DNA of 64,000 bases, from positions 1 to 64,000 of IMG/VR virus record IMGVR_UViG_3300008113_000007. The stretch is one strand, 5' to 3'. This DNA is from a virus (lineage: Duplodnaviria; Heunggongvirae; Uroviricota; Caudoviricetes). This document shows, piece by piece, positions 31,946 to 63,717 of the stretch (its first letter is position 1; every line of letters begins with the position of its first letter). Below the pieces are notes generated by a model, which searched no databases, had not been told where the DNA came from, and worked only from the letters and a program-made list of their open reading frames with translations. Both the position numbers and the translations under genes were made by a program.

Positions 31946-31988
31946 CTTCGTTTTTTCTTTTATATATTACGAAAGTGGCCTTCTTCCT

Positions 31989-38528: not shown

Positions 38529-38550
38529 AAGATATACTCTTTTTTGAGGT

Positions 38551-38560
38551 TATATATTAA
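38551..38560 (-). promoter_or_regulatory. late-promoter-like box (minus strand reads TTAATATATA) upstream of the giant fiber gene
   Basis: Motif family; ~23 nt upstream of the start. Confidence 0.35.
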
Positions 38561-38585
38561 ATCCTGGATACTGCCAATGGATTAA

Positions 38586-39563: not shown

Positions 39564-39564
39564 A

Positions 39565-40509: not shown

Positions 40510-40513
40510 GTCT

Positions 40514-41461: not shown

Positions 41462-41654
41462 GTGCCTCCGATGCGTCTACCAGAATTGAGTTCGATACGT
41501 CAGTTTCTGAGATATCGATTGTGTCTCCGTTCGAATTGGCAAACCTCGTAAGCTCCTCATTTATATACTCTTTGTAAAATAGAGTTTCGACTTCCGCTGA
41601 CGTAAATGACCATAGTTCGTACCTAAGATAGTATTGCCTTATGTCATTTATCAT
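41430..41654 (-). CDS. small hypothetical protein
   Basis: ORF overlapping the end of the upstream paralog. Confidence 0.3.
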   Translation of the reverse strand: MINDIRQYYLRYELWSFTSAEVETLFYKEYINEELTRFANSNGDTIDISETDVSNSILVDASEALVPEWLRNND

Positions 41655-41660
41655 ACGTCC

Positions 41661-42077
41661 TTAGTATTTTCCTCCTATGACACTCACTGCATATCCAGCG
41701 GATGCGGTCACACCCAAAGTGACGAATAAGCGGTAACTCGGTGGTAGAGCAAAGTTAAGCGGTAACTCGGTCGTACTGAGCGCACTGGTCTCGGAGACTG
41801 TTGTCGCCGCCAGCGATACCTCGTCAAAAAGCACGTTGTTTGCGGCCGTGCCAGTACTCGAGCCGTTGTTTATCCATAGCCTCGCCACGGTGGCCTGATT
41901 TGTGCCGAGTGGCCTGAATCTGATCCTCTGAACGTATCCGCCGTTCGTAGAGTCTGCAACAAATACAGAATAGGTGATACCCGTCGTCAGGTCCTTTGTC
42001 GTGTTGGCGGCGGAAGCCGAAGCACCCGACCACTGAATGTCTCCTATTCTCGAAAAGATTGGTTGGTTGTTTGGCAT
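41661..42077 (-). CDS. small beta-rich structural protein, fifth member of the 'W(L/I)N(D/N)G' paralog family
   Basis: 'YVQRIRFRPLGTNQATVARLWINNGSSTG' aligns with 'DRRVYGISIVNTSAASAQTVTIWLNDGT'. Confidence 0.45.
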   Translation of the reverse strand: MPNNQPIFSRIGDIQWSGASASAANTTKDLTTGITYSVFVADSTNGGYVQRIRFRPLGTNQATVARLWINNGSSTGTAANNVLFDEVSLAATTVSETSALSTTELPLNFALPPSYRLFVTLGVTASAGYAVSVIGGKY

Positions 42078-42113
42078 TGTTGACGTTTTATTTTATATAT
42101 CTTTTACTTCTCT

Positions 42114-47015: not shown

Positions 47016-47018
47016 CTT

Positions 47019-48233
47019 TTATCTGTAGTATTTTATGTTCACACCTGTCCTGAACTTGGCGGTGTTGCTTGTCGCCTTTATGCAGACCCACCATTCCTCA
47101 GAGGTCTGGTCGATCCTGTATCCTAGTGAGAACGCGCTGTCATCCATGTTCGCCTTCTCTTGCGAAAGAGCGCCCGCCTTGCCCATGAAGCTGCCGATCA
47201 CGAAGCCCTCCTGTGCGACGGTGAGTGTGCCCGTTCCGAAAGAATACTCTATTGGCGAGTTCGCTATCTGCGTCCAGTTCGAAGTGTCGGACAGTGTCGG
47301 TGCTTTCTGCAAGGTCACCAGGTAGTTGTCGTTTGACGTCTGCAGAACGTCTATCGCAGATAGCATCGCCGAGACGCCGAGCTGCCTCTGGCTGGTCGAC
47401 AGCCTGATGCCAAGTACCGCGTAGTCGACGCCTCCGGTCAACAAAGTCCTCTCCGTGAAGTCGGTAATCGAGACCGTCCTGTAGAGTGAGTTTATGGAAC
47501 CCTCCATCGAGACGCCAGAGCATATCATGCCGAACGTGCCGCTTCCTGTGCCGTTCTGCCTAATCTCGTATCTTATAGGCTTGTTCGGGTTGTCCATGTA
47601 CACCGTCGAAAGGTTGTTCATGCCGGTGTGCTCGTAGAATAGTCTCGGTGTCCCATCGATGACCATGTAGAACCTTAGTCTGCCGACGCCTAGCCACTGG
47701 AAGTCCACGAACATCAGCTGTGTCTTCGTCCAGTCTATCTGCGAAACGTCGTAGTCGGTGTCTAACCAGGTGGAAGATGTTGCCGTCAGCACGTTGGTTC
47801 CGCCCTTCCATATCTGGAAGCTTATCGAATTGTTTGTTCCGTTCGACTCGAGGAAGAATCCGTCGAAGCCGTTACCGTAGTTGCTGGCGGTGCCCGATGT
47901 GTAGTAGCCGACCCTCTTGATTACGTTCGACTGCGTCGCGAAGTTGGTGAAGGACGCCTCTACCAGCTGGCTTTTTCCGGACTGGTAAGGCGCGGCCTTA
48001 ATGGATTGCCTCACCACGTAGTCGCTGTTGGTAGAGGTCGACATCGTCACGCAAGCATCCGCCCACGAGGCCGTTCCGTTTCCGCCGTTCTTCTCGTCTA
48101 TGAAAAGTGGTAGTTTGTCGTACAAATGCTTCAGGTCCAGCAACGTCGTCGTCTGCGATACCCTTAGCCTGCTGAAGGCGTCGAGGTTCGCTGAGTCGCT
48201 GTACTTTATTTCGTTGCTGTAGACGTAAGACAT
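47019..48233 (-). CDS. virion structural protein (beta-rich), function unknown
   Basis: 404-aa ORF in the fiber operon; Ser/Thr/Gly/Asn-rich. Confidence 0.45.
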   Translation of the reverse strand: MSYVYSNEIKYSDSANLDAFSRLRVSQTTTLLDLKHLYDKLPLFIDEKNGGNGTASWADACVTMSTSTNSDYVVRQSIKAAPYQSGKSQLVEASFTNFATQSNVIKRVGYYTSGTASNYGNGFDGFFLESNGTNNSISFQIWKGGTNVLTATSSTWLDTDYDVSQIDWTKTQLMFVDFQWLGVGRLRFYMVIDGTPRLFYEHTGMNNLSTVYMDNPNKPIRYEIRQNGTGSGTFGMICSGVSMEGSINSLYRTVSITDFTERTLLTGGVDYAVLGIRLSTSQRQLGVSAMLSAIDVLQTSNDNYLVTLQKAPTLSDTSNWTQIANSPIEYSFGTGTLTVAQEGFVIGSFMGKAGALSQEKANMDDSAFSLGYRIDQTSEEWWVCIKATSNTAKFRTGVNIKYYR

Positions 48234-48236
48234 ATT

Positions 48237-49028
48237 CTATATTGTTTTCCAGGATGAGTTTCTGTACATGAACGTCAGCGACATCCTGTCCATCTTCATC
48301 AGCACGCTCTGCTCGCCGTTTATGAGTTGTGACGCCGTACCCTGCACCTTTATACCCCTACCGTATTTATTTATACCGCCTACTTCGTCCGCTATGGTTA
48401 TGAACTTTCCGTCGTTTTCCGGAGAGGTTCCGTAAGGTAGTGTCACCGTACATTGGCCGCCCATGTATACTACGCCCAGGTAGTCGTAAAGGAACGACGC
48501 CGAGTACGCAGGGCCCGTTATCTCGCCGGTGCTGTTCTTCATCGAGGTCAGCTGGGTAGGCTGCATCCAGTTGTAGCTCGATCCGTCGTAGACCCAGACG
48601 TACTCCTTTCCTGTGTCGCTGTCTATCCACCTCGAGCCGAGAACCGTCGGGTCCACTACCGGCCTGCCTGGCTGGAAGTAGAAAGGCGCGTACTGGCCTT
48701 CAACGAACAGATCCCAGCTGGCAGTCGCCACGTCGGGCGAAAGATAAGGCGGCGATCCGACAATCGGTCCGACGCACACGTACGCGCTTCCGTTGTACTG
48801 AACGACGTCTTTGTCGAAGTACAGCATCATGTCGTCCCAGTCGCCCATCCAGTTGAACGATGAGCCTGCCGGGCCGGTCGGCCCTTGTGGACCAATAGAA
48901 GCGGTACCCGCGCCGAGGTCGAGTAGGTTTCCGAACCCGTCGTAGTAGGTGTCCGGGCTTCCGTGGATTACCTGGACTATACGTCCGTAGGAACCTGAGA
49001 CGGTGACGCCGGTCAAATCATAACTCAT
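48237..49028 (-). CDS. fiber-like protein sharing the N-terminal anchor motif with the 2179-aa protein; contains a short collagen-like 'GPQGPTGPAG' stretch
   Basis: 'GRIVQVIHGSPDTYYDGFGNLLDLGAG' versus the giant N-terminus 'GRLVQIINGVYYDGFGNVLNIGSAG'. Confidence 0.5.
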   Translation of the reverse strand: MSYDLTGVTVSGSYGRIVQVIHGSPDTYYDGFGNLLDLGAGTASIGPQGPTGPAGSSFNWMGDWDDMMLYFDKDVVQYNGSAYVCVGPIVGSPPYLSPDVATASWDLFVEGQYAPFYFQPGRPVVDPTVLGSRWIDSDTGKEYVWVYDGSSYNWMQPTQLTSMKNSTGEITGPAYSASFLYDYLGVVYMGGQCTVTLPYGTSPENDGKFITIADEVGGINKYGRGIKVQGTASQLINGEQSVLMKMDRMSLTFMYRNSSWKTI

Positions 49029-49069
49029 TCCTTATATATTAACTATCATGAGTCTAGCCCTGCATTTAT

Positions 49070-49081
49070 TAATATATAAAC
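49070..49081 (+). promoter_or_regulatory. TAATATATAAAC late-promoter-like box upstream of the 49098 gene; a mirror-orientation box at ~49031-49044 serves the minus-strand fiber operon
   Basis: Divergent arrangement of the motif family. Confidence 0.35.
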
Positions 49082-49097
49082 GAAAAAATAGGGCCAT

Positions 49098-49487
49098 ATG
49101 CCAATAGTTCACTCGAACCTTCTCAACGCGGATCTGAACTGGACCGACCAGGAGTACGCGGCTAAGAAGAAGTACCTAAAGTGGGAAGAGGTCACACTGA
49201 ATTGGGAGGACGTAGAACTCACGTGGGACGAAGTATTCATAGTGCTGGAGCTTGTCCGCAGAGGAGGAGGAGGCGGCTCCTACCGCGACGAGTACGAGAA
49301 AGGCAATCCATGGAGGAAGATGGCCAAAGACCTCGGCGAGGAGAACACGAAAAAGGTCATAAAGCTTTACTGCAGGGTTCGCGGCGTCGAGTACGAGGAC
49401 ATAAAGGAGCCGATGGAAGACGTGAAGGTCACAGTCGGCGAGTTCACCAGGTTCATCAACGAGGTCAGGGTAAAAGTTGGCATTTAA
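49098..49487 (+). CDS. hypothetical protein
   Basis: ORF only. Confidence 0.4.
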   Translation: MPIVHSNLLNADLNWTDQEYAAKKKYLKWEEVTLNWEDVELTWDEVFIVLELVRRGGGGGSYRDEYEKGNPWRKMAKDLGEENTKKVIKLYCRVRGVEYEDIKEPMEDVKVTVGEFTRFINEVRVKVGI

Positions 49488-49504
49488 AATTGAATATATA
49501 AGTC

Positions 49505-50287
49505 ATGGAAAACGATAAAGATGTATTTAGATTCGAGGATTTCGTCGATGTTGACAAGCTACAGAAGATGAAGTCAAACCTGTTGAGAGAAGGCATTCTC
49601 AGCGAGGACGAAAGAGATGACTTCGAGGACGAAGAGATTGACCCGTCTTTGAATCCGTATAACGTAGGTCGCGGAGACAGCGTCGACTACGATGCCGTCG
49701 CGGATGCTATGAGGCAGTCTTACGGCGACGCCGTTATGAACAACATCGAGGACTTCGAGAAGTCCAAGTCGTACACCGGAACCACAGACACCGCCGAGTA
49801 CGTCGACCAGTTCTCGACATACATGAACTTCTTCGGATCCGGGGAGACCGAGGATGACTACGAGGACGAGGAGCACTTCGACTTCCACAACGAGAGCAAC
49901 GAAGTCGAAGACTATTACAAGCTCTACAAGGACAAGGCTGAGGAGTTCACCTGCGACATCGCCATCGAAGGAGTTAAGCAAGAGGACACCGAGGTCAGGC
50001 TCATAGTCGAGAGCGATGAGTGGACGCTTATGTTCACAGGAGAGGTGAGGAAAGGCCAGTGCGTCATACCTATGAAGAAACTCAGCATACTGAACGAGGG
50101 AGCTACGGGTACCATCCGACTCGAGGTGAACGCTGACGGAACTCTTTTCACGCCGTGGGAAGACACTTTCATCGTGAAGGCTTCGAAGAAGGTCACTGTA
50201 CAGGTGAACGAGAGCAAGTCATCCAAAAACAAGAAACCCGCCACCAAAAAGGCGCCGGGTGTCAGTGTGAAGGTGAGAAGATCATAG
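49505..50287 (+). CDS. highly acidic hypothetical protein
   Basis: Asp/Glu-rich 260-aa ORF. Confidence 0.45.
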   Translation: MENDKDVFRFEDFVDVDKLQKMKSNLLREGILSEDERDDFEDEEIDPSLNPYNVGRGDSVDYDAVADAMRQSYGDAVMNNIEDFEKSKSYTGTTDTAEYVDQFSTYMNFFGSGETEDDYEDEEHFDFHNESNEVEDYYKLYKDKAEEFTCDIAIEGVKQEDTEVRLIVESDEWTLMFTGEVRKGQCVIPMKKLSILNEGATGTIRLEVNADGTLFTPWEDTFIVKASKKVTVQVNESKSSKNKKPATKKAPGVSVKVRRS

Positions 50288-52399
50288 GAAACTTACCCAA
50301 CCTTTCTCTACTATCTTAGAAATAACGTCGTTCGCGCGAATTGACTTCGTGCATTCGAACTGCCTGTCGGTTCCTTGGTGGTCCGGGCACCAGTTCCAAT
50401 CTCCAGGGTTGAACCTGTGCCTGTTGTAGCATCCGTTGCAAACGTCACCGTTGAAGATCCTTATGACGTCGTCGCCCTCGAACTCCGACTGCGGCGTGCT
50501 GAAGCCCGATATGAGTACGGTCCTTATTCCCAGTGTCCATGCAAGCCAGCTCAGACCCGATCCCAGTCCTATGAACATCTGGCACGAAAGTATCTCCGAC
50601 TTCAAGGTCTCGAAGTCACCCGGTGGCAGGACACTTGCGCCAGTAGGGTAGCTGTTGCCCATATACCCATCGCCTTCGTTAGACAGTACTATCACCTCGT
50701 ATCCTATCGATGTTAGGAAGTTTGTGACCTCCTGCCACCCGGTCGGGTTGTTCCAGTATTTTGGCTGCGCTGTAGAGTGCACTCCAATTCCTACCCTTTT
50801 CCTTTTCGCGAAGTCGACCGGCTTCAGCTTGGCACGCGTCTGTACGTAGTCCAGACCGAGAATGTCCGCCGCGGTCTGCGAGAGTGGCAGCTTTTTGAAC
50901 TCTCTCGGGTGGTATTGTGGGTGGTGAGAATCTCCTTCGAAGTACCAGCCTATATTGAACATAGCGTATATCCCGTGAACCACGGTACCCGGTGGTACGA
51001 ACTGTATCTCGGGATAGGATTCGACGAACTGCTCGTTCATGAAGGTTGAGCATACGACTTCGCAATTCCACTTCTTTCGAAAATTGTCTACCTGTGGGAA
51101 CCAGGCCATAGTGTCGCCCAGAGACTTAGAGTCTAAGCTGATTAGTACTCTTTTACCCGTAGGGTTGAATTCTTCCTCGAAAACTCGACCGTCGGATTCG
51201 CGGACGAACCTTATGTGCCAGTCTGCCGCGAACTTGAGAGTCGCCTTGGCCCAGCAGTCGTTGCCCACAATCGAGCTATAGTGCACGATACCGGTGCTTC
51301 TGTCTGTGAACGTGACGTGGAAGGTGTCGCCCGGTGCGTCGTGTATGTGCGCGTAAGGCCCGTCAACGAAGTTCACCGTGAAAGATGGGTCGATTTTCCT
51401 TATTTCCGAGTTTCTTTGAACGCCGTAGTAGAGGTTGCTCACGCCAAGCTCCGAGTGTGCGGTCAGTATCGCCTTAGCCGCCTGCTCTACGTCGTCCTCG
51501 AAGTAGGTGGCCACCCCGTCGTACTCGTTCTCGTATGTATCCAGGTTGCGTATCGCCAGAGGCAATCCGAAGCTTCTCGCCTCCTTCAGTGAAAGCGGGT
51601 TCAGCTCGAACAAAGAAGGAAATACGAAAACGTCTGCGGCCTTGTAGAACTCATCGACGTCGCTCCTCTCGCCGTGCCAGGTGCAGTTGTCGGGAAGGTT
51701 TTCCATTATCGGCCTCCAGTAGTCACTGAAGTTGTCTGCTTGGTTTCCAACGAAGTGGAACTCGACGTTCGGGTTGTAGTTCTTCATGAACTTGGCCACC
51801 TCGACGATGAACGACTGGTTCTTTCCCGGAGTGAAAAGACCTACGTGTAGGACGTGTATCGTTCCGTACTGGTCGTCGAAGCCGAGCCGGTTCTTGGCAG
51901 CGCCTTTGTCGTAGGTTATAGTCTCGACCGGGTATTCCCAGACGCTGCACATCTCGTTGCCGAACTCTGCAGCGAACCTGCGGTGGCTCCAGTTTGAAAC
52001 CAGCACGTACCTGTCTGGAATGTAACGTATCTTCGCCGGGTTCGTGTATGAAGAGTGCGTCGTTACGACAATGTCGTACGTCCTGTCGTCGTACCATACA
52101 GCGTTCAGTATGTCCAAGGGTACGAAAGTCTCCGGTATCTCCTGGAAGTGTATTATGTCCGGCTCGACGGAATCGATAAGCCTGAGGAACTCGTACTTTT
52201 CCTCGCCCAGCGTGACCAGTCGGTCACCGATCAAATTCTGTATCCTGTTTCTTTGCACGACGAGGACACCGCCGGTGATGTTGTCCCATTCCACGCACCA
52301 CACCTCGTACTCGCCCATCATCGACTCTATCTGCCTCACCGTGTACTGTGGCAGGCCGCCAGTCGAAAGGTGCGGCACGACGATTATTAACTTTTTCAT
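50282..52399 (-). CDS. bifunctional glycosyltransferase: N-terminal GT4 (GT-B) domain plus C-terminal GT9 heptosyltransferase-like domain. The probable true start is MKKLIIVV (approx. nt 52398); track ORF 50282..52609 has a ~70-aa upstream extension
   Basis: GT4 EX7E-type motif 'FPSLFELNPLSLKEARSFGLPL'; GT9-like N-terminal 'SLGDTMAW' and 'KYWNNPTGWQEVTNFLTSIGYEVIVLS' (compare RfaF/RfaC); Cys-rich 'CNGCYNRHRFNPGDWNWCPDH' reminiscent of adhesin heptosyltransferases. The upstream 70 aa are low-complexity and precede an in-frame ATG with a TATATATA box. Confidence 0.65.
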   Translation of the reverse strand: MKKLIIVVPHLSTGGLPQYTVRQIESMMGEYEVWCVEWDNITGGVLVVQRNRIQNLIGDRLVTLGEEKYEFLRLIDSVEPDIIHFQEIPETFVPLDILNAVWYDDRTYDIVVTTHSSYTNPAKIRYIPDRYVLVSNWSHRRFAAEFGNEMCSVWEYPVETITYDKGAAKNRLGFDDQYGTIHVLHVGLFTPGKNQSFIVEVAKFMKNYNPNVEFHFVGNQADNFSDYWRPIMENLPDNCTWHGERSDVDEFYKAADVFVFPSLFELNPLSLKEARSFGLPLAIRNLDTYENEYDGVATYFEDDVEQAAKAILTAHSELGVSNLYYGVQRNSEIRKIDPSFTVNFVDGPYAHIHDAPGDTFHVTFTDRSTGIVHYSSIVGNDCWAKATLKFAADWHIRFVRESDGRVFEEEFNPTGKRVLISLDSKSLGDTMAWFPQVDNFRKKWNCEVVCSTFMNEQFVESYPEIQFVPPGTVVHGIYAMFNIGWYFEGDSHHPQYHPREFKKLPLSQTAADILGLDYVQTRAKLKPVDFAKRKRVGIGVHSTAQPKYWNNPTGWQEVTNFLTSIGYEVIVLSNEGDGYMGNSYPTGASVLPPGDFETLKSEILSCQMFIGLGSGLSWLAWTLGIRTVLISGFSTPQSEFEGDDVIRIFNGDVCNGCYNRHRFNPGDWNWCPDHQGTDRQFECTKSIRANDVISKIVEKGWVSFL

Positions 52400-52426
52400 A
52401 ACGATTATACTAAACCAAATGCCACT

Positions 52427-52440
52427 GGTTTTTATATATA
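52427..52440. promoter_or_regulatory. divergent TTTTATATATAATG box between the GT gene (minus) and the 52470 gene (plus)
   Basis: Palindromic TATATATA core can serve both strands. Confidence 0.35.
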
Positions 52441-52469
52441 ATGACGATTGATAAAAAACGAGAATCAAC

Positions 52470-53798
52470 ATGGCGAAACTAATAACACTTAACGACAACG
52501 AGGGATCCGAATTCCTGAACTCACTGCTCAGGGATGAGCTCATAGTAATAGAGGACGTGCAGGGTAGCAAGATCTGGATCAACTGGGACGGGAAAGACTT
52601 CGTCATCAAACCGAAGTCGATAAGCAGCGAGCCTATAAACCTGGTCGACCTGGCGATGCAGAACTTCTACAACGCCGCGTTCGACTATATGAGGTCTCTC
52701 GACAACAGGGTCAAGTCCCTGCTGAACAAAAAGTGGTGGTTTTGCTTCGAGTACTTCCCCGACAGCCAGCCGGCCAACATCGAGTACGACCGTATGCCGA
52801 AGAACGGCCTGGTGCTTACTTCGATATACAAGGGTGGCAAGTACGAGTTCAACGTAGAGGAGCTCGACGAGTACAGCAGGCTGCTCGATGTCGAGATGAT
52901 ACCCGTGATATTCCAGGGTAAGCTGACTGAACGCATGATAGAGGCGATAAAGTACTTCCTGAACACAAGCGAGGACGACCTCGAATACGTCTTCGGCGAG
53001 AAGAACTTCTCGTTCTTCTTCTACAAGATACTCAACCCGACGATAGACTCGTCTTTCCTTATGGACGACTCTTTCCAGGCCAACCTCGAGAAGCTCATAT
53101 TCAGGCTAGGCGACGGCGACAAGTCGTTCGAGCTTCTTAACCCGCTCTACAAAAGAGTGAGCGACGGCAACTCCACAGACTTCGTGGAGATATACACACT
53201 CATACTTATAAACTTTATGAACTTCTGCCAGTCAGTCGTTGTCGAGGATATAAAGCTTCGCGGTAAAACGCGTGAAGAGGCTTACATCTACCTCATATCA
53301 AAGCTTTACAACCTTTATCTATCTGAGGTCAAGGAAGATTTGCTGGATTTCGAGTTCACAATCCCTGAGTTTTTCGACAAGGACAAGTTCAAGATAAACT
53401 CTGAGCTGATAGAAAACAAGACTACGAGATCGTACATCGCCGAGAGCGACAAGCTGGAGTACATATTCAAGGTCATACTCGGATCGTTCAACAAGCGTAA
53501 GAAGAAGCCAATCGGCATATTCACTGACAGCACAGTCAACCTTTTCAACCTTTTCGTTTCACGTATATCCGACCACGTCGAGACTTACCTCAACAGGACT
53601 AACGAGGTCGAGCTCACGCGTGCCGGCCTTCTCGACTTCGGCGACTTCTTCGACATCAAGTACGACACCGACGCCGAGGGCGAGGTCTATCCGGACGTAT
53701 ACTCAGAGATTGAGAAGGGTGCGGACGAGAAGTCGAAGAAGAAAGGCATGAAGGGAAAGGTTCCTACGACAACTGACCAAGAAAAACCAGCGATATAG
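52470..53798 (+). CDS. hypothetical protein (442 aa)
   Basis: ORF; weak, unconvincing resemblance of 'EDVQGSKIWI' to the RNA-ligase motif-I region, but the lysine is not conserved. Confidence 0.45.
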   Translation: MAKLITLNDNEGSEFLNSLLRDELIVIEDVQGSKIWINWDGKDFVIKPKSISSEPINLVDLAMQNFYNAAFDYMRSLDNRVKSLLNKKWWFCFEYFPDSQPANIEYDRMPKNGLVLTSIYKGGKYEFNVEELDEYSRLLDVEMIPVIFQGKLTERMIEAIKYFLNTSEDDLEYVFGEKNFSFFFYKILNPTIDSSFLMDDSFQANLEKLIFRLGDGDKSFELLNPLYKRVSDGNSTDFVEIYTLILINFMNFCQSVVVEDIKLRGKTREEAYIYLISKLYNLYLSEVKEDLLDFEFTIPEFFDKDKFKINSELIENKTTRSYIAESDKLEYIFKVILGSFNKRKKKPIGIFTDSTVNLFNLFVSRISDHVETYLNRTNEVELTRAGLLDFGDFFDIKYDTDAEGEVYPDVYSEIEKGADEKSKKKGMKGKVPTTTDQEKPAI

Positions 53799-53800
53799 AT

Positions 53801-53995
53801 ATGAACGACTACGAGAGATACGACTTCTGGCACAGAGAGATGGAATCTGTCGTGCCGGAGAAGAAAAGAACAATGAAGCAGCTGATTGATTCGAACCGAA
53901 GGTTCGACGATAAGGTCGCAGCAGAAGAACGAAGGTCCGAGGACATAGACGGATACGCCGTATCCATTATAAACAATGTATTATATTACAACTGA
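53801..53995 (+). CDS. small hypothetical protein
   Basis: ORF only. Confidence 0.3.
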   Translation: MNDYERYDFWHREMESVVPEKKRTMKQLIDSNRRFDDKVAAEERRSEDIDGYAVSIINNVLYYN

Positions 53996-54058
53996 TTTTA
54001 TTGCCCGATACGTTCGGGCATTTTCGGCAACAAACGAGAGCAAACGAGTATAAAAGTT

Positions 54059-54247
54059 ATGGAGAGAACAGACATAAATATGACTGGGGTTGAAGTTCAG
54101 GCGGAGACAAGGCCGCTGCGCGCCTCGTGGACCAGGGAGACGTTCGGGGACCTCAAGATAGACTTCAAGAGCTACTCGATACAGAGCGTTTTCAGGGCAT
54201 CAAACAGAGTCAAAATTATAAAGGAGCTGTATGGTATCGGAGACTAG
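54059..54247 (+). CDS. small hypothetical protein
   Basis: ORF only. Confidence 0.25.
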   Translation: MERTDINMTGVEVQAETRPLRASWTRETFGDLKIDFKSYSIQSVFRASNRVKIIKELYGIGD

Positions 54248-55466
54248 CATAAGGAAGAAGCTCGAGAAGAAGAAGAGCAGCCTTCAGTTCCTGCCGTCTA
54301 AGATGGTCGCGGCTTCCGTAAGTAAGAGATTTGAGTACAAAGGTAAGACGCTCAAGACTTCTTATGCGGTGGACATCATACACAATATGATCCTGAAATA
54401 CTACTTCAGGAAGGAAAACAGCTTCAACCTACACTCTTCCATTCTCAAAGAGAAGTACGGTCACCTTTACAATCACTACATGGACTATCTCGTCGAAACC
54501 GGTGTCATCGAGATGACAAAAAACTACCTCTCGGGCCGGAACGCCAGGATTTACAGAATAAAGCCTGACGTACTGAAGTCCGATATAAAGAGGTACGTCA
54601 ACACCGACGCAACGCTGATAAAGAAGTACAGGAACAAAGTCTCTCAGGTCGAGGAGGCCGGCATACACGACTCACTCATCGATCCGGACATAAAGGCCCG
54701 TTTGGTTGACGATCTTTTCTACGTAGAGGTCGACCACGCCAAGTCAATCTTCTTTCTCGACCACCTCAAAGACAAAGGTGGCGAGATTTACAACAGGAAC
54801 GTCTACTCGGTCGAGTGCATCGGCGGAAAGCACATTTTCTATCACTTCGACGACTACGGCAGGATGCACACGAACTTTACCATCCTAAAGTCTTTCATCA
54901 GGAAGAATTGTCTTATGATAGATGGTGAGGCCACGCACGAAATAGACATAAAGAATAGTCAGCCTCTATTTCTGACAAAGATAATAGAGGAATCTGGCAG
55001 CAAATGGGTTAGGTCCGACGAGTTCGAGTTGTTCAAATACCTTACGCAGAAAGGTATGTACTACCAATACTTCATGGACTGCACCGGTGTGAAGGACAAG
55101 AAGACGATAAAGGAATGGACCTACAAAGTTCTTTTCGGCAGGAACGCCTCGAATAGCAAGGCGGACCGTGCATTTTTGTCGATATTCCCGACCATACACA
55201 ACTTCATAAAGCTGTATAAAAAGGACGCCGGTGACTACAGGATTCTTTCACACAGGCTGCAAAGGGCAGAGTCGAGACTTATCTTCAACAAACTCGTCAG
55301 AAGGATAATGGATAACTTACCAGACGTTCGTATGGTCACCGTTCACGACAGCATAATAGTCCAACAGCGACACCGCACCGAGGTTCAGGCCATATTCGAC
55401 GATGTCATGTCCGAGGAGTTCGGATTTCCAAAAACGTATGAGGAAGAATTAATATATACGGTATGA
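54231..55466 (+). CDS. hypothetical protein (411 aa)
   Basis: ORF only. Confidence 0.45.
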   Translation: MVSETSIRKKLEKKKSSLQFLPSKMVAASVSKRFEYKGKTLKTSYAVDIIHNMILKYYFRKENSFNLHSSILKEKYGHLYNHYMDYLVETGVIEMTKNYLSGRNARIYRIKPDVLKSDIKRYVNTDATLIKKYRNKVSQVEEAGIHDSLIDPDIKARLVDDLFYVEVDHAKSIFFLDHLKDKGGEIYNRNVYSVECIGGKHIFYHFDDYGRMHTNFTILKSFIRKNCLMIDGEATHEIDIKNSQPLFLTKIIEESGSKWVRSDEFELFKYLTQKGMYYQYFMDCTGVKDKKTIKEWTYKVLFGRNASNSKADRAFLSIFPTIHNFIKLYKKDAGDYRILSHRLQRAESRLIFNKLVRRIMDNLPDVRMVTVHDSIIVQQRHRTEVQAIFDDVMSEEFGFPKTYEEELIYTV

Positions 55467-56002
55467 GTGGACTAGAACAGCCTAACGCATCGTACCTTAT
55501 AGTATCGGCGGACAATATGGACGCGCTGACGTCGATACTATGGTCTAAGGAGTACAACATACTGCCGATACAAGGCTACTACGAGGGCAGTTTTGAAGAC
55601 TCCGTGCTTGCATACAAATCAGTCGACAACGACGAGCTGAGGAGAGACGCGATAAAGATACTCGACCTACACGGCCAGGAGTCTGCGATAATAAAGTATC
55701 TCGGTGAGTCCGAGCCGAGGAAGATCTTCTACAACGGAGAGGAGAGGCCGATGGGTGTGGTCATGTACAACACCGACGCCAAAAACAAGTCTTATCTCCA
55801 CAACGGTGTCTCGTTCTCGTTCGTAGAGAAGACTATGTACTGGTTTCCTAAGTCGAAGTCGGATCTTGCACAGGGCATGGTAGTCGAGTTTCTGAATAAC
55901 AACAAGTGGCTAGAGAAAAGAATACACGACCTTGACGAGGAGTGGGACAAAATGCTGTCTTTGTTGGTTAAGTACGAAAAGCTCCGAGTGGAGCGAGTCT
56001 AA
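55463..56002 (+). CDS. hypothetical protein
   Basis: ORF only. Confidence 0.4.
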   Translation: MSGLEQPNASYLIVSADNMDALTSILWSKEYNILPIQGYYEGSFEDSVLAYKSVDNDELRRDAIKILDLHGQESAIIKYLGESEPRKIFYNGEERPMGVVMYNTDAKNKSYLHNGVSFSFVEKTMYWFPKSKSDLAQGMVVEFLNNNKWLEKRIHDLDEEWDKMLSLLVKYEKLRVERV

Positions 56003-56625
56003 ATCTTCCTGTAGACGACGATGTCGTCGACCTCAATCTCCTCTAAGCCCGAAATCTTCGACAATGTTTCTTTGAGGCCTTTACCGCAGTTTCTCGATTC
56101 GATTATTACGGCACCTGGCCTAATCTCACCAACTACTTTTTCGTAGAATGCGGTCAGCTTCTCTTCGGTCTTGAACGGCGAGTATGTGTAGACCAGGTCG
56201 TATTTAGAGTATTCGTGGTCCATTATGTCGCCTATCAACAACTCGAGGTTCCCATCCCAGTAGTGCATCAGTTTCTCAATAAGAAAGTCCGAATACCTGG
56301 CGTGCTTCTCAATCCCGGAGAATTTGAATTTTTTGCCAGCAATATCTTCGGACTGTAGGTACAGATCGAACATTGTCGATGCCAAACCTATTCCGCAGTC
56401 GAAGATCCAGTTGCTTTCGCCGAGTAGCCCTCTTTCGTCAAGCCTTCTCAGTAAGAATATGTTCTGCTCCAGCTCTGAGGGTATGTAGTGCCACTCGTCG
56501 TGGTTTATGAATTCTCCTCGCGTTCCGTCGAAGTCTGTGAAAAGGCCCTGTGCGTCTGCTAGGTACTCCATCAGTTTCGGATGTGGGTCTACGAATTCGG
56601 TAGCGTACTCTCTGTTTTCTTCCAT
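55999..56625 (-). CDS. class I SAM-dependent methyltransferase
   Basis: Motif I 'IFDCGIGLAS' (hhDhGxGxG-type). Confidence 0.55.
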   Translation of the reverse strand: MEENREYATEFVDPHPKLMEYLADAQGLFTDFDGTRGEFINHDEWHYIPSELEQNIFLLRRLDERGLLGESNWIFDCGIGLASTMFDLYLQSEDIAGKKFKFSGIEKHARYSDFLIEKLMHYWDGNLELLIGDIMDHEYSKYDLVYTYSPFKTEEKLTAFYEKVVGEIRPGAVIIESRNCGKGLKETLSKISGLEEIEVDDIVVYRKI

Positions 56626-56627
56626 GG

Positions 56628-57410
56628 TCAGAAGTTGTCGTATTTGTTCTTCATTCCAATCTTAGGAAGTGTGCCTACTATGTGTCTTTGTAGTTCATCC
56701 TTGTTCAGCGCTCCGAGTTTCTGTAGTAGTTGTAGGTTTCTCTGGTACCACTTCGTTTCCGGTGCCTCTCTCTCGTGGAATAGGTGGTAGCATTTGCCCG
56801 GCATTTCGTGCCAGGAAAGGAAGTTTTTCACCTTTACCGCCATGAAGTCGTCCTCGCCTCCCCAACCGACGAAGTCCTCGTTGTAGCCGCCGATTCTCAG
56901 AAAGGCATCCTTTCTGAATATTGTCATTCCTCCGCAGATGTTTATTTTCTGGTTGTCTGTCTCTCCTCTTCCCGGCCTTTGTATCTTTACCATTTCTTCC
57001 AGTTTCCCGAGAGACTCAGTCACGTTTAGGTCGACGACTGAGCTATAAGGACTTACGCACTCGTAGTTGGTCATAAGCCTCAGGCCTTCGATGAAGTTGA
57101 ACGGATCCATTATGAGATCGCAGTCCGTCAGAACTACGACGTCCGCCTTGGCGTGTTTTACCCCGACGTTGAAGCCCCACGATCTGTTGAACGGCATCTC
57201 TGTCTTAGTGAAGATGTGCTTCACCGGAAGGTTGAAGTGTCCTATCTTTGAGTGCTTGTCCTGTTCGACGAGTATTATCTCCGATTCCGAGAAAGATGTT
57301 GCCCACTCAAGAACTCTCTTGAGGTTCTGTAGCCTGACGAGGTCTTTGTGTCTGTAGAGTATGACGAAGGAAAACGAGAGGTTCTCTTTTATCTCATGAG
57401 TCTGAATCAT
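56628..57410 (-). CDS. GT2-family (GT-A fold) glycosyltransferase, beta-1,4-galactosyltransferase-like
   Basis: DXD 'LTDCDLI'; C-terminal 'GGYNEDFVGWGGEDDD' hallmark of GalT-like (Glyco_transf_7C-type) enzymes. Confidence 0.7.
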   Translation of the reverse strand: MIQTHEIKENLSFSFVILYRHKDLVRLQNLKRVLEWATSFSESEIILVEQDKHSKIGHFNLPVKHIFTKTEMPFNRSWGFNVGVKHAKADVVVLTDCDLIMDPFNFIEGLRLMTNYECVSPYSSVVDLNVTESLGKLEEMVKIQRPGRGETDNQKINICGGMTIFRKDAFLRIGGYNEDFVGWGGEDDFMAVKVKNFLSWHEMPGKCYHLFHEREAPETKWYQRNLQLLQKLGALNKDELQRHIVGTLPKIGMKNKYDNF

Positions 57411-57479
57411 TCTTTTTCTTTGTTTTTTGTTTTATAAACTAAAATGATAACTTTGTTTTCATCCTGAACTACAATCGTT

Positions 57480-58025
57480 ATGATAGATCTAAAGAAGTTC
57501 AACTACTTCTCGGGTGAGGAGAGTGCCGTCGGTAAGGCGGTTCACCAGATATGCCAGATGCACGAGCTCGCTGGGAATATGTCGATACTGTTTCATTCGC
57601 GTACCGGCGGTGAAATCGGGCTTCACCACTCCATGCAGCCAGCCCACTCCTACCGAACGGATGCCGATCTACTGGCCATGCTCGAAGACAAAGGCTTAAT
57701 GTTCAGGGCCGACATAGTGGTCATCGACGCGTGGAAGATGAAGTCGGACCGTCTTGACAGAGTAGTCTCTCGAATGAAGGAGTTAGGACATCTCTTCATC
57801 ATAATGTCGCAGTCCTACCACGTCGTCGCGAACAACGACGAGGTTGCAGAGTACACTGCGCAGTCGAATATAGTAGAGGGAAAGCAGAGGAACGTCGTCG
57901 GCTTTTCAGTGCCGTTGAGAGAGACACGTATAAAGAGCAAGACCGAGAACTGGTCGGCGACCACCGACGAGCTAAAGTCCGCCTTCGTCAGAGACAAGAG
58001 GATTGACGATCTTTTAGGCGAATAA
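57480..58025 (+). CDS. hypothetical protein
   Basis: ORF followed by a bidirectional terminator. Confidence 0.4.
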   Translation: MIDLKKFNYFSGEESAVGKAVHQICQMHELAGNMSILFHSRTGGEIGLHHSMQPAHSYRTDADLLAMLEDKGLMFRADIVVIDAWKMKSDRLDRVVSRMKELGHLFIIMSQSYHVVANNDEVAEYTAQSNIVEGKQRNVVGFSVPLRETRIKSKTENWSATTDELKSAFVRDKRIDDLLGE

Positions 58026-58028
58026 AAA

Positions 58029-58053
58029 AAGAGGCAAATCGCCTCTTTTTTTA
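58029..58053. terminator. bidirectional terminator (agaggc-aaat-cgcctct plus a T-run, A-run upstream)
   Basis: Hairpin between convergent genes. Confidence 0.6.
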
Positions 58054-58710
58054 TTTCAGTTGAATCATATATGGTTCATCGAGCCATCCGTCGATTTGAT
58101 CTTTCTGTATCAGGTTGAGATGGGAAATTCTGTCTGCGTCGAATTTTGAAAACTCGAAGAACGGGTTGGTCATCTCGATGGCATCTCTCTTCATTGGTCT
58201 CATAACACCACAACCGAAGTCGGTATCGACGACACACATCATCATTTCTGTGTTTTGGCAAACATTTTTGTAAACGGCTTTCCATACGGTTCCAGTCCAT
58301 TCGTTCCTTGCTACAGTGTGGTGGTCTGCCTGTGCTGCGCGTGTGTGGTACTCTGTTGGTGGGTTGCAGTCGTGTAGTACGATTGTGCCGTTTTCCGAAA
58401 GATGTCTCATTGAGTTTATTATATCTTTCTCGACCTGTTCACACGTGTGCAGCCCGTCGATGAAAATTATGTCCCATTTGTAGTCCGCTTGTAGATCCAA
58501 CTCATTGCTCTCGAGAAGTTCGAAGAACTTGTCGGATTCGAATTTGTAAGTTGCCATATTCCACGGGTTCTCATAACCTGGATCTACAGAATGCTTAGTT
58601 GAACACTTTATGTGATCAAAACAATAAGTTGGATGAAACAGTCCTATCTCGAGGTATTTGCTGTAACCGTATTTCTCAACCGCCTTGTTAATAATGTCCT
58701 TTCTCTCCAT
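58051..58710 (-). CDS. class I SAM-dependent methyltransferase (Methyltransf_24 / CmcI-like O-methyltransferase)
   Basis: 'YLEIGLFHPT' motif I; 'WDIIFIDGLH' typical of the DxxFIDadH block of this family. Confidence 0.55.
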   Translation of the reverse strand: MERKDIINKAVEKYGYSKYLEIGLFHPTYCFDHIKCSTKHSVDPGYENPWNMATYKFESDKFFELLESNELDLQADYKWDIIFIDGLHTCEQVEKDIINSMRHLSENGTIVLHDCNPPTEYHTRAAQADHHTVARNEWTGTVWKAVYKNVCQNTEMMMCVVDTDFGCGVMRPMKRDAIEMTNPFFEFSKFDADRISHLNLIQKDQIDGWLDEPYMIQLK

Positions 58711-58756
58711 AAATTTTTTTTTATTTTTTATAGATAGAAAAAAACATTTGGTTCTA

Positions 58757-58942
58757 TTAGCCTAATATGATTCCTGGCGATTTGTACTCTTTCTGTGATA
58801 CAATCTCGAGCATTTGTGTCGTGCTTAGTTCTTTCGCGTTCCAACCCTTTTTCTTGGAGTACTCATTGATGAACCTCTCTCTCATCAGTATCATCTCGTC
58901 TTGAGTGATAGGCTCGTTCTTGATCATTTTGTTCTTGTCCAT
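58757..58942 (-). CDS. small hypothetical protein
   Basis: ORF only. Confidence 0.3.
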   Translation of the reverse strand: MDKNKMIKNEPITQDEMILMRERFINEYSKKKGWNAKELSTTQMLEIVSQKEYKSPGIILG

Positions 58943-58975
58943 GACGTAATTTTTATTTTATATATTATTTTGCAA

Positions 58976-59509
58976 TTACATCCTGTGTTCGTAAATATCA
59001 AAAACCTTTCTGAAGTCCTCCGAGCAGAGTAGCGGTACTATCTCGTTTATCTGTGCGTCCTCTAAATCCCACCACTTTAGTCTCAGTAAGGCATCTATCG
59101 TCTCATCGTCGAACCGCTTCTTTATGACTCTCGCCGGGTTTCCACCTACGATTGTGTATGGTTCTACGTCTTTCACGACGTGTGCTCCGTTGGCTAGTAC
59201 AGCGCCGTCGCCAACCGTTACTCCCGACATAATCGTGACGTCGTTACCTATCCAGACGTCGTTTCCGATCACGACGTCGCCCTTTGTGGCAGGATGGCCC
59301 TTCCCATCGAATTTGTTGAAAGTGTCAGTAAATATGTGTCCGAATGGATAAGTGGTTCCCCAGTGTGTGTTGTGGTTCCCACCAAGCATTATAGTTATGT
59401 TGTTGGCGATCGAGCAAAACGATCCTATTTCGAGCTTGACACCTTCCTGCCAGAACAGCGCCCTTATGTTTTCCACACCGTACGTGTGCCTTCCTATTCT
59501 GTAAGCCAT
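58976..59509 (-). CDS. hexapeptide-repeat (LbH) acetyltransferase, xenobiotic acetyltransferase (XAT/Vat/CatB-like) family
   Basis: Hexapeptide repeats '[34 protein letters not shown]', '[14 protein letters not shown]', C-terminal 'WWDL'. Confidence 0.75.
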
Positions 59510-62609: not shown

Positions 62610-62890
62610 GCAAACTTAATGAGGGCCTCGACCCTAACAACCCAGCACACAAAGTCATCATCGACATCAACAACAGGAACGAGAAACTTTACGGTCCTTA
62701 CAATGAGAAGCACAAGTTGTTTCAGGCTTTCGTACCGAAGCCCAAACCTTACACAATACCATCCGAACACGTGGAGTGGGTAAGTAAGATGGTCGAGTTC
62801 GGTATTTACGAGATGGAGAAAGGTGGTAGAAAGGCACCCGACACTGTATACGAGGTACTGAACGGATTAAAAGAAGCGGCGTGGGTATGA
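62561..62890 (+). CDS. hypothetical protein
   Basis: ORF overlapping its neighbours at both ends. Confidence 0.35.
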   Translation: MVQGICKEQENKRDNMSKLNEGLDPNNPAHKVIIDINNRNEKLYGPYNEKHKLFQAFVPKPKPYTIPSEHVEWVSKMVEFGIYEMEKGGRKAPDTVYEVLNGLKEAAWV

Positions 62891-63717
62891 ACAAGGCGGA
62901 CGAATACTACCTCATAAATCTTCATAAGATACTTGAGGAAGGGTCCTGGGACGAGAACCCACGACCACGATGGAAGGACGGAAAGCCGGCACACACTAAG
63001 TTCATAACCGGCGTCTTCGAGGAGTACGACCTCGAGGCAGGAGAGTTTCCGCTTACGACGCTCAGGAACACCGCGATAAAAATCGGTATAAAGGAGATAC
63101 TCTGGATCTACCAGAGGCAGTCGAACTCGTTGGCCGAGGCCAGAGAGATGGGCATAAACTGGTGGGACGAGTGGGACATCGGCGACGGAACCATCGGTCA
63201 GAGGTACGGCGCCACCATAAGGAGGTACGGACTTATGAACAAGCTGCTCGACGGTCTGATCAAGGATCCTTTCGGACGCAGGCACATCATAGACATGTAC
63301 CAGTACGCGGACCTTGAGGAGACGTCTGGGCTTCACCCGTGTGCGTTTATGACGAAGTACTCCGTACGCAGGAAGAACGGCGATCTTTACCTCGACATGA
63401 CACTGGACCAGAGGTCGAACGACTACGTTATGGCCGGTTACATAAACAAGATACAGTACGTCGCGCTTCAGATGATGGTCGCGTCGCACTGTGGGTTCAA
63501 GGTCGGTAAGTTCTGCCATATGGTCCAGAACCTGCACGTCTACGACCGCCACTTCGACGCGGTGAAGGAGATAATAGACAGAGAGCCGCTGGAGCAGAGC
63601 CCACGCATTGCTTTGGAAACAAGTAAGAGCTTCTGGGATATAAACATCGACGACTTCAAAATCTACGACACCAACGGAATTCAAAAGCTTTCTGAAAAGC
63701 TTGAGATTGCAGTATAA
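62881..63717 (+). CDS. deoxynucleotide (dCMP/dUMP) hydroxymethylase of the thymidylate-synthase superfamily (T4 gp42-like)
   Basis: Catalytic Cys in 'LHPCAFMTKY' (T4 gp42 'DFMCTNTVQY'); 'DQRSNDYVMAGYIN' versus gp42 'MRSNDVVFGFRND' (thymidylate synthase instead has DMGLGVPFN); 'NLHVYDRHF' versus gp42 'SLHVYSRHF'. Confidence 0.7.
   Translation: MGMNKADEYYLINLHKILEEGSWDENPRPRWKDGKPAHTKFITGVFEEYDLEAGEFPLTTLRNTAIKIGIKEILWIYQRQSNSLAEAREMGINWWDEWDIGDGTIGQRYGATIRRYGLMNKLLDGLIKDPFGRRHIIDMYQYADLEETSGLHPCAFMTKYSVRRKNGDLYLDMTLDQRSNDYVMAGYINKIQYVALQMMVASHCGFKVGKFCHMVQNLHVYDRHFDAVKEIIDREPLEQSPRIALETSKSFWDINIDDFKIYDTNGIQKLSEKLEIAV

Follow-up and report, generated by a model that had tools for sequence, protein, structure and literature searches.

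A GT4-BAHT fusion glycosyltransferase in the fibre cassette of a huge-phage relative, a candidate enzyme for O-glycosylation of proline-free collagen-like fibres

A window of 64,000 nucleotides from a Caudoviricetes record of IMG/VR (IMGVR_UViG_3300008113_000007, positions 1 to 64,000) encodes, close to two giant collagen-like fibres, a 705-residue protein that joins a glycosyltransferase family 4 (GT4) module to a module of the BAHT type, the family of the protein O-heptosyltransferases TibC and Aah. It is highly probable that this fusion is a protein glycosyltransferase of the BAHT family. The explanation that we favour as a whole, and hold to be rather likely, is that it O-glycosylates the phage's own fibres as a two-module enzyme. 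Fibre glycosylation is supported because the protein scores above the cutoff of the BAHT model TIGR04414, because its gene and the fibre genes form one indel cassette, and because genes for G-[ST]-[ST] repeats are neighbours of such enzymes in phages and in bacteria. A preliminary description of this DNA had proposed that five modification enzymes O-glycosylate the virion; these three grounds support the proposal for the fusion alone, and the five-enzyme pathway is not supported.

50282..52399, minus strand: 705-residue fusion, joining an N-terminal GT4 module to a protein O-heptosyltransferase module of the TibC/Aah type (BAHT) (Pfam, NCBIfam and PDB matches)
51395..52399, minus strand: GT4 module, residues 1-335, predicted retaining enzyme of GT-B fold, EX7E motif at E265...E273 (Pfam, alignment of homologues)
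50282..51382, minus strand: BAHT module, residues 340-705, with a beta-barrel, a GT9-like catalytic domain and a predicted four-cysteine iron finger (TIGR04414, TibC structure 4RAP)

The fusion of a GT4 to a GT9 domain, recognized in the preliminary description, is borne out by Pfam. Residues 182-314 match Glyco_trans_1_4 (PF13692, 56.3 bits; cutoff 27), the GT4 part also matches Glycos_transf_1 (PF00534) with 52.5 bits vs a gathering cutoff of 26.4, and residues 514-637 match Glyco_transf_9. By sequence, the C-terminal half is a full BAHT rather than a generic heptosyltransferase. Residues 356-697 match positions 25-372 of the 374 positions of the NCBIfam model TIGR04414, "autotransporter strand-loop-strand O-heptosyltransferase", with 267.7 bits (E = 1.4e-79; curated equivalog cutoff 200). 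The crystal structure of TibC (4RAP) was aligned over 340 residues of the fusion (E = 1.8e-54) with all four cysteines of the Cys-rich motif in register, which agrees with the earlier observation that this motif recalls the adhesin heptosyltransferases.

The functional residues of TibC are the catalytic Asp110, the heptose-binding Thr226, Lys230, Arg286 and Trp305, and an iron finger of four cysteines (PMC4358343). The catalytic base D110 corresponds to D429 of the fusion and is invariant in 138/138 BAHT domains that we collected. Likewise invariant in the 138 domains are the sugar-binding T226, K230 and W305 (T543, K547 and W618 of the fusion), as are, in 138/138, the cysteines C339, C342, C358 and C370 (C654, C657, C671 and C683), from whose alignment an iron finger is predicted in the fusion. 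As to the GT4 module, its EX7E motif is invariant in 20 homologues, and it gives weak matches to TarM and to GT4 enzymes of the SdgA/SdgB type.

The fibre genes and the cassette that holds them together with the fusion are the following.

31989..38528, minus strand: 2179-residue fibre with 1005 residues in proline-free G-[ST]-[ST] triplets, proposed acceptor (Pfam Collagen, E = 6.6e-127; composition)
42114..47015, minus strand: 1633-residue fibre, of which 903 residues are in G-[ST]-[ST] triplets, likewise a proposed acceptor (Pfam Collagen, E = 5.2e-125; PHROG tail-fibre families; composition)
47019..49028, minus strand: 404-residue virion structural protein and 263-residue fibre-like protein (phrog_1645, E = 1e-46; phrog_5073)
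29099..52469, no strand assigned: hypervariable fibre cassette of ~23.4 kb, with the fusion as its terminal gene (synteny with LR756502 and LR745206)
26430..29098, minus strand: backbone genes flanking the other side of the cassette (230, 160, 235 and 260 residues; neighbour clustering)

Serine and threonine together make up 42% of the 2179-residue fibre and 44.5% of the 1633-residue fibre, and both match Pfam Collagen, as expected from the earlier account of Ser/Thr-rich collagen-like fibres next to the enzyme. In both giant fibres the X and Y positions are ~90% Ser/Thr and proline is ~0; of the features of collagen they have the long G-X-Y periodicity and lack X and Y positions rich in proline or hydroxyproline. 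Their C-terminal regions hold repeated beta-rich modules. The 263-residue fibre-like protein and the 2179-residue fibre have a common N-terminal motif, "YGR-VQ-I-G...YYDGFGN-L", and the pair of 404- and 263-residue proteins is kept next to the fusion in relatives L004 and those of the L345 type. The cassette also holds two sets of paralogues: at 30213-31945, two tandem 144-residue proteins and a 314-residue protein that apparently contains two copies of the same module, and at 38586-41461, three tandem proteins of ~315 residues with a Gly_rich_2 domain.

The portal protein of the window (9959-11701) is 77-78% identical to the portals of the huge phages LR745206 (635 kb) and LR756502 (642 kb), 47-52% identical to those of LR756501, LR756503 and LR756504 (genomes of 636-735 kb) and 32% identical to those of Lak phages. 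PHROG and Pfam searches recognized T4-like core modules, namely a clamp loader, a gp15-like sheath stabiliser, the portal, a prohead protease and a major head protein. By these similarities the source phage, with its T4-like core, is related to the metagenomic huge phages of 630-735 kb and is not the ordinary T4-like phage for which it had been taken. A nucleotide search of the 10-kb region against deposited phages gave zero matches.

LR745206 and LR756502 are the two closest complete genomes, and both keep the backbone on either side of the cassette. In LR756502, homologues of 27612-28319 and 28316-29098 directly adjoin the homologue of 52470-53798; therefore, the segment of ~29.1-52.4 kb is a single indel cassette comprising every fibre gene and the fusion. 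At the same site, LR745206 carries a different cassette, with non-collagen open reading frames (ORFs) of 1910 and 1128 residues and no fusion. In a different phage lineage (L005, L008-L011, L033 and others), three of the genes at 26430-29098 have homologues directly upstream of the fusion. Searches of Pfam with the proteins of this block gave no match except a weak one to ART-PolyVal for the 160-residue protein; in the 260-residue protein, a GS...DxD motif resembling that of minimal nucleotidyltransferases was noticed by eye. Three plus-strand backbone genes (52470-56002; 442, 411 and 179 residues) lie between the fusion and the glycosyltransferase gene at 56628-57410. Their products have no match in Pfam, PHROGs or NCBIfam, and the 442-residue protein is kept in all six deposited huge-phage relatives at 29-72% identity.

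56628..57410, minus strand: glycosyltransferase of the GT2/Glyco_transf_7C type (GT2/7C) with a DCD motif, a backbone gene (Pfam Glyco_transf_7C, Glyco_tranf_2_2 and GT2)
55999..56625, minus strand: 208-residue protein with a predicted class I S-adenosylmethionine (SAM)-methyltransferase fold, downstream of GT2/7C across a gap of 2 bp (AlphaFold and Foldseek)
58051..58710, minus strand: Methyltransf_24 methyltransferase, a strain-specific insertion (Pfam, E = 8.4e-9)
58976..59509, minus strand: XAT-class hexapeptide acetyltransferase, Vat/CatB-like, strain-specific (NCBIfam, PDB)

Together with the fusion, these are the five enzymes named in the preliminary description, and each of them is indeed an uninterrupted minus-strand ORF. 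Their conservation was compared in 80 relatives anchored on the 442-residue backbone gene: GT2/7C is present in ~66, the fusion in 11, the 208-residue methyltransferase in 5, and the Methyltransf_24 and XAT genes in 0. In relatives L002-L004, whose fusions are 61-67% identical to ours, the fusion, the plus-strand genes, the 208-residue gene and GT2/7C are syntenic, and Methyltransf_24 and XAT are absent. From the synteny, that with LR745206 and LR756502 included, and from these counts, the fusion is assigned to the fibre cassette and GT2/7C to the backbone; the remaining three are found sporadically or in this phage alone. For the 73 loci that reach 8 kb or more upstream of the 442-residue anchor, the fusion was tabulated against G-X-Y genes: six have the fusion and a Ser/Thr-rich G-X-Y gene, four the fusion alone, none a G-X-Y gene alone and 63 neither. 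All six positives share one cassette type, so that the table, drawn within one clade, represents about one evolutionary event.

Beyond these relatives, the fusion is common in viruses. Full-length homologues number 3464 proteins at E <= 1e-10, and relatives of the fusion were found on at least 578 IMG/VR viral contigs of up to 476 kb. Among 185,579 species-representative genomes of bacteria and archaea, a scan found 54 loci, with the full fusion in only three contigs of metagenome-assembled genomes (MAGs), all of which look like binned phage fragments. The GT4-BAHT architecture is thus essentially phage-only. Phage fragments binned in bacterial MAGs were seen in L172 (JAIOYD010000068.1, a "Rickettsiaceae MAG") and also in L171, L186 and L198, and these four are likely cases of bin contamination in GTDB representatives; L172 carries a fibre with the N-terminal motif of the window's protein at 48237-49028 and a BAHT 56% identical to that of the window.

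Phage fusions were dereplicated at 80% identity into 52 groups, for which flanks of up to 10 kb were available. A collagen-like (G-X-Y) ORF was found in the flanks of 36 of them, at a median distance of ~1.8 kb and often directly abutting and convergent, and this distance spans many phage lineages whose other neighbours differ. In a stop-to-stop scan, G-X-Y ORFs were present in 57/80 fusion-anchored vs 0/80 portal-anchored loci. In composition the ORFs near fusions are a distinctive class: X is T in 58% and S in 27%, Y is S in 65%, N in 16% and T in 7%, and proline is ~0. G-[ST]-[ST] genes are thus enriched near the fusion without being obligatory partners.

The most telling result is that the same pairing is seen in bacteria. 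The neighbour-joining tree built from BAHT domains has a basal group of 22 "classical" loci (Citrobacter and Escherichia with the TibC type, Anaerovibrio, Selenomonadaceae, Desulfovibrio and others); in most of them a neighbouring ORF has at least 900 residues, and a Ser/Thr-rich G-X-Y gene is found in 0/22. All phage fusions group with a subclade of bacterial stand-alone BAHTs from Methylobacter, Methylomicrobium, other Methylococcales, Polaromonas and Burkholderiaceae. In this subclade, 17/22 loci have a gene for a protein of 100-340 residues within 221 bp of the BAHT gene, and these proteins combine a signal peptide or lipobox with (G-T-S/G-T-A)n repeats.

L173:8920-11122, L178:9911-11677, L182, L191, L197, L200 and ~12 more: bacterial loci with a BAHT gene and a G-T-S repeat gene

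The genes around these loci are unrelated housekeeping genes, such as QueA, Mfd and CsiV in Methylobacter and a GntR-aminotransferase and a D-serine-dehydratase-like gene in a beta-proteobacterium; therefore, the conserved unit consists of the BAHT enzyme and the repeat protein alone. The unit mirrors the pairing of enzyme and substrate genes in tibC-tibA and aah-aidA, and it looks like an undescribed bacterial glycoprotein system. No separate GT4 partner was found in the bacterial G-T-S loci, and therefore no "Rosetta stone" argument from fusion links the two modules.

We propose that the fusion works in the cytoplasm as a two-module protein O-glycosyltransferase that would decorate the phage's own fibres before or during assembly. 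The BAHT module would transfer a sugar to Ser/Thr hydroxyls of a highly repetitive acceptor, acting on G-[ST]-[ST] tracts much as TibC acts on the repetitive passenger of TibA, which it hyperglycosylates and for which its authors proposed processive handling (PMC4358343). The GT4 module would add a second sugar, on top of the first one or at other sites. As acceptors we infer the ~1900 residues of proline-free G-[ST]-[ST] in the fibres at 31989-38528 and 42114-47015; that fibres of this kind are the acceptor of the fusion is probable in our view. Dense O-glycosylation might then stiffen, stabilise and shield these proline-free tracts. Two known proteins give precedents: glycosylated threonine stabilises the triple helix of the cuticle collagen of Riftia, and the collagen-like region of BclA in the exosporium of Bacillus anthracis is O-glycosylated, its repeats containing proline (GPT).

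A wider picture is quite possible, and we offer it tentatively. GT4-BAHT fusions could be a widespread, phage-specific and undescribed form of virion glycosylation, namely processive hyper-heptosylation plus a second sugar on (G-T/S-S)n fibres, with glycans doing what hydroxyproline does in animal collagen, stabilising the helix and shielding it from proteases. Other phages might methylate these glycans through a fused FkbM domain and perhaps sulfate them through the adjacent APS kinase and sulfotransferase, the two-gene units of methanotrophs and Burkholderiales might be a sister system acting on secreted G-T-S lipoproteins, and the BAHT family might be a general "glyco-collagen" machinery.

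The donor of the BAHT module is most likely ADP-heptose or a close variant. A heptose is favoured because T226, K230 and W305 are conserved and because other phages carry pathway-like genes: immediately downstream of the fusion, several lineages have genes for a cupin-type isomerase, a CTP_transf_like nucleotidyltransferase and a PfkB kinase.

L005:12183-13677, L011:12162-13297 and L038:13339-13737: cupin/CTP_transf_like/PfkB gene sets

The best solved match of the PfkB kinase is the D-beta-D-heptose 7-phosphate kinase HldA (E = 5e-12), the nucleotidyltransferase is closest to adenylyltransferases, and by these matches the set could be a phage-borne pathway of the ADP-heptose type with a non-SIS isomerase. 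Other recurrent neighbours in fusion-anchored loci are a second GT9 (24), APS kinase (18), sulfotransferase (17) and a Skp1-type GlcNAc transferase of PF11397 (15); FkbM methyltransferases and HtrL/YibB also occur beside fusion homologues, and L006 (2647-9367) has two 2-oxoglutarate-Fe(II) oxygenases resembling prolyl 4-hydroxylases (P4H) together with the fusion. Such clusters of modification genes adjoin collagen-like or Peptidase_S74 fibres (L006, L064, L069, L031 and other fusion-anchored loci), and the APS kinase, sulfotransferase and P4H-like neighbours hint at sulfated and hydroxylated fibre modifications. In longer homologues, FkbM or Methyltransf_23 domains and DXD-type glycosyltransferase domains are fused to the GT4-BAHT core. 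Judged from these architectures, methylated and elaborated glycans are a reasonable expectation for the family at large, with the methyltransferases and the acetyltransferase of this window unlinked to the fusion.

Several observations weigh against fibre glycosylation by the fusion. The position of TibC Arg286, a residue required for TibC activity (PMC4358343), is Leu599 in the fusion; it is T, V or L in phages and I or V in the bacterial G-T-S clade vs R in 21/22 classical BAHTs. Since the arginine is replaced throughout the clade, a variant sugar is possible, and the donor may differ from the heptose of TibC. No ADP-heptose genes were found among the ORFs scanned in the window; therefore, the donor would have to come from the host or from another part of the genome. 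The acceptor of TibC has a beta-helical strand-loop-strand structure, and by this comparison acceptor recognition would have to differ. Four relatives (L377, L378, L423 and L375) have the fusion and no G-X-Y gene within 10 kb: the fusion alone (~2.9-4.7 kb) fills the site between the partner genes and the 442-residue gene, with no fibre genes, so that it evidently can persist without adjoining collagen-like genes. LR756504 has a stand-alone BAHT and no G-X-Y gene within 12 kb. Among 120 viral chunks with G-[ST]-[ST] repeats, a BAHT was in the same chunk for 8, which is a weak test on arbitrarily cut chunks. The portal-anchored control is a single clade and therefore weak, and the linkage counts ignore phylogeny. 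Finally, two plus-strand genes separate the fusion from the fibre genes, so that these are not co-transcribed with it.

Where marine T4-like phages carry glycosyltransferases in their fibre regions, these are usually interpreted as auxiliary genes related to lipopolysaccharide (LPS) (PMC7029224; PMC12801897). Applied to the window, this interpretation would have the glycosyltransferases, methyltransferases and acetyltransferase remodel the host envelope by altering LPS, capsule or surface proteins, with a block to superinfection or a change of serotype as the outcome. GT9, GT4 and GT2 are typical families of LPS-core and O-antigen synthesis, separate GT9, HtrL/YibB and heptose-pathway-like genes lie near fusion homologues, and GT2/7C, a backbone gene independent of the fibres, may act elsewhere; for GT2/7C, LPS or capsule is indeed a plausible target. 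Such a target fits the BAHT module poorly. The GT9 half scores above the cutoff of a protein-specific model and has an iron finger and a beta-barrel, both missing in LPS heptosyltransferases; in the bacterial clade the enzyme gene and a G-T-S gene make up a two-gene unit, near which there are no LPS genes; and the fusion co-varies with the fibre cassette. We therefore regard envelope remodelling as an unlikely account of these genes.

About equally unlikely is that the fusion modifies something other than the G-[ST]-[ST] tracts, such as the Gly_rich_2 proteins, the 144-residue paralogues, a capsid decoration or a host protein, and that its linkage to collagen-like genes merely reflects residence in a hypervariable fibre island. 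The four relatives and LR756504 just described, in which no G-X-Y gene is nearby, are what it would predict, and TibC itself recognizes beta-helix repeats, to which the repeated beta-rich modules in the C-terminal regions of the fibres may be compared. Against this, a G-T-S repeat protein is the only conserved neighbour in the bacterial sister clade, and it is so in two bacterial orders, and in phages the short distance of ~1.8 kb, often with abutting genes, is maintained across lineages whose neighbours otherwise differ.

The identities of the other four enzymes largely agree with the preliminary description. GT2/7C belongs to Pfam GT2/Glyco_transf_7C families and matches the C-terminal region of beta4GalT1 (E = 9e-5); its homologues in LR745206 and LR756502, both of which lack the fusion, are 56% identical. 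Of the two SAM methyltransferases, the 208-residue protein matches no family in sequence searches of Pfam, PHROGs, NCBIfam and PDB. Its AlphaFold model (predicted local distance difference test score 90.2) has 731 Foldseek matches in PDB at E <= 1e-3, and those listed are all SAM-dependent methyltransferases or relatives with the SAM-binding fold, e.g. nicotianamine synthase. The glycine-rich motif I "DCGIGL" is invariant in its 26 homologues, and we assign the modelled structure to the class I SAM methyltransferase fold. The second, the Methyltransf_24 protein, has no match in PDB; its gene is absent from L002-L004, LR745206, LR756502 and 80/80 relatives. The XAT-family acetyltransferase is closest to VatA (E = 2e-38), VatD and CatB (~1e-38), with sugar O-acetyltransferases at ~1e-15. 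It scores below the equivalog cutoffs for Vat (164 vs 300 bits) and CatB (150 vs 350 bits), lacks ~35 N-terminal residues, and is by similarity a member of the class rather than a Vat or CatB equivalog; its gene is absent from 80/80 relatives.

What did not hold is the view of these genes as a single glycan-modification cluster: they lie in three minus-strand blocks split by plus-strand genes. Nor does a coat that is heptosylated, galactosylated, methylated and acetylated by one pathway agree with their distribution, because the five genes do not co-occur across the 80 relatives. We rejected the five-gene pathway on the synteny in L002-L004, LR745206, LR756502 and the 80 relatives and consider it improbable; GT2/7C, the 208-residue methyltransferase, Methyltransf_24 and XAT are not demonstrably part of fibre glycosylation. 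It would be a further step to deny all five enzymes a common function and to see in them an accidental neighbourhood of accessory genes in a plastic region. The alternating strands, the intervening genes of unknown function, the differing conservation (GT2/7C in the backbone, the 208-residue gene sporadic, Methyltransf_24 and XAT unique) and the closeness of XAT to antibiotic acetyltransferases all suit such an accident, and for four of the five genes we adopt it. Extended to the fusion it becomes very unlikely, since it would leave unexplained why the fusion is found paired again and again with G-[ST]-[ST] genes.

62881..63717, plus strand: ThyA-type thymidylate synthase (NF002495, 323 bits vs a cutoff of 327)

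This gene had been described as gp42-like and adduced for glycosylation of DNA as an alternative. Its best solved structure is ThyA of B. subtilis (E = 1.6e-39), it keeps the uracil-specifying Asn where gp42 would have a cytosine-specifying Asp, and T4 dCMP hydroxymethylase is not among the best 60 of its 119 matches; the alternative thus finds no support in it. Phage glycosyltransferases can reportedly hypermodify DNA. That those of the window glycosylate hydroxymethylated bases, with the thymidylate synthase homologue supplying hydroxymethyldeoxycytidine or hydroxymethyldeoxyuridine, is nevertheless the least probable explanation of all: a gene of this family does lie 3.4 kb from XAT, and dUMP hydroxymethylases are hard to tell from ThyA by sequence, but no gp42-type enzyme is among the matches listed, the ORFs scanned (47-64 kb) match neither a T4-type alpha- or beta-glucosyltransferase family (Pfam, PHROG, NCBIfam) nor a 5-hydroxymethyluracil kinase family, and in the TibC literature (PMC4358343) the BAHT family has only proteins as acceptors.

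Among known systems, the fusion most resembles TibC/TibA and Aah/AIDA-I, with which it has in common the family (by hidden Markov model and by structure), the catalytic Asp, three of the four sugar-binding residues, the iron finger and the N-terminal beta-barrel (PMC4358343). In these systems, too, the enzyme gene stands beside the gene of a repetitive Ser-rich substrate, which is hyperglycosylated in the cytoplasm. The classical activity of the family is transfer of heptose from ADP-heptose to Ser, by an enzyme that assembles as a dodecameric ring. They differ in that the phage enzyme is fused to a GT4, that Arg286 is replaced across its whole clade, and that its putative acceptor would, by analogy, be a G-[ST]-[ST] virion fibre instead of a beta-helical secreted adhesin. 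The window has no gene resembling that of an AIDA-type autotransporter; the repeat proteins beside the fusion are the fibres with their G-[ST]-[ST] tracts.

Glycosyltransferases of mycobacteriophages are reported to O-glycosylate Ser/Thr-rich parts of virion proteins, as demonstrated experimentally. There the acceptors are C-terminal extensions of capsid and tail-tube subunits in phages of another host group, whereas here they would be giant fibres; the enzyme families presumably differ. Further glycosylated proteins of this sort are BclA and the collagen-like or fibril proteins of giant viruses, in which Thr-rich G-X-Y tracts are heavily O-glycosylated and form surface filaments. These differ from the phage fibres in their glycosyltransferases and sugars (rhamnose/anthrose; Lys-linked glucose in Mimivirus) and, for BclA, in the presence of proline. 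GtfA/GtfB and SdgA/SdgB are enzymes of the GT4 fold that act on long Ser-rich repeats, and the GT4 module weakly matches the SdgA/SdgB models, although far under their curated cutoffs (18 bits vs 800). Marine T4-like phages carry glycosyltransferases and rfaE-like genes in the hypervariable tail-fibre region, which have been read as modifiers of the host O-antigen (PMC7029224); here, in contrast, the key enzyme comes from a family specific for proteins, and in bacteria too its gene stands beside that of a repeat protein.

BAHTs that act on autotransporters and virion glycosylation by phage glycosyltransferases in mycobacteriophages were already known. As far as sequence comparison can tell, the new elements are a phage-specific GT4-BAHT fusion family and a BAHT clade apparently dedicated to proline-free G-T-S repeat proteins. 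Our literature search found no paper on TibC-like enzymes of phages, on heptosyltransferases with collagen-like proteins or on phage Mel-JY01. If fibre glycosylation by the fusion is true, many large environmental phages would sugar-coat their host-recognition fibres with an enzyme family known only from adhesins of pathogenic E. coli, which would bear on fibre building, protease resistance and host recognition. It would also change how glycosyltransferases in fibre islands are annotated by default, at present as auxiliary genes for LPS modification, and it would point to natural proline-free collagen-like tracts whose stability may rest on glycans. For glyco-engineering, a processive enzyme with a repeat as simple as (GTS)n for its acceptor would be a useful tool. 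Small experimental systems exist in the BAHT and G-T-S units of cultured Methylobacter and Methylomicrobium (Methylobacter luteus IMV-B-3098 and Methylomicrobium lacus, in which the G-T-S neighbour is a lipoprotein) and in the cultured Microcystis phage Mel-JY01. Mel-JY01 encodes a 1226-residue protein with both GT4 and BAHT modules, which GenBank lists as "methyltransferase FkbM", and a G-X-Y gene lies ~1.7 kb upstream of it.

A k-mer scan identified a promoter-like motif in the window. TATATAA occurs 23 times vs ~10 in shuffles, 21/23 sites fall between genes, and the distance to the next gene start is mostly 4-33 nt; extended forms of the motif are TTAATATATAA and TTTTATATATAA.

52432..52441, no strand assigned: palindrome TTATATATAA, a promoter-like motif within the 70 bp that separate the divergent genes of the fusion and the 442-residue protein
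76, 3294, 9932, 18642, 38550, 49032, 49073, 49495 and 52432: positions among the motif sites

Motifs of the TATATAA type precede the genes of the portal, the gp15-like protein, the fibres (22 nt upstream in the case of the 2179-residue fibre) and the fusion; none is upstream of GT2/7C, the 208-residue gene or XAT. Since TTATATATAA is palindromic, it would serve both the fusion and the divergent 442-residue gene. As a motif match only, the shared element is consistent with co-expression of the fusion and virion genes. The T4 late promoter TATAAATA was rejected as a candidate, as its 2 occurrences vs 0.9 expected are no enrichment.

Several other genes in the window deserve mention. A glutamine synthetase-like gene with Gln-synt_C and Gln-synt_N domains (6283-7341) lies amid structural and replication genes. 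A protein with a TnsA-like endonuclease N-terminal domain is encoded at 8133-8660 and has a 70% identical counterpart in LR756502. An SPFH/Band 7 family protein (21264-22208) is absent from LR745206, and a D12-class N6-adenine DNA methyltransferase (23550-24482) is a backbone gene.

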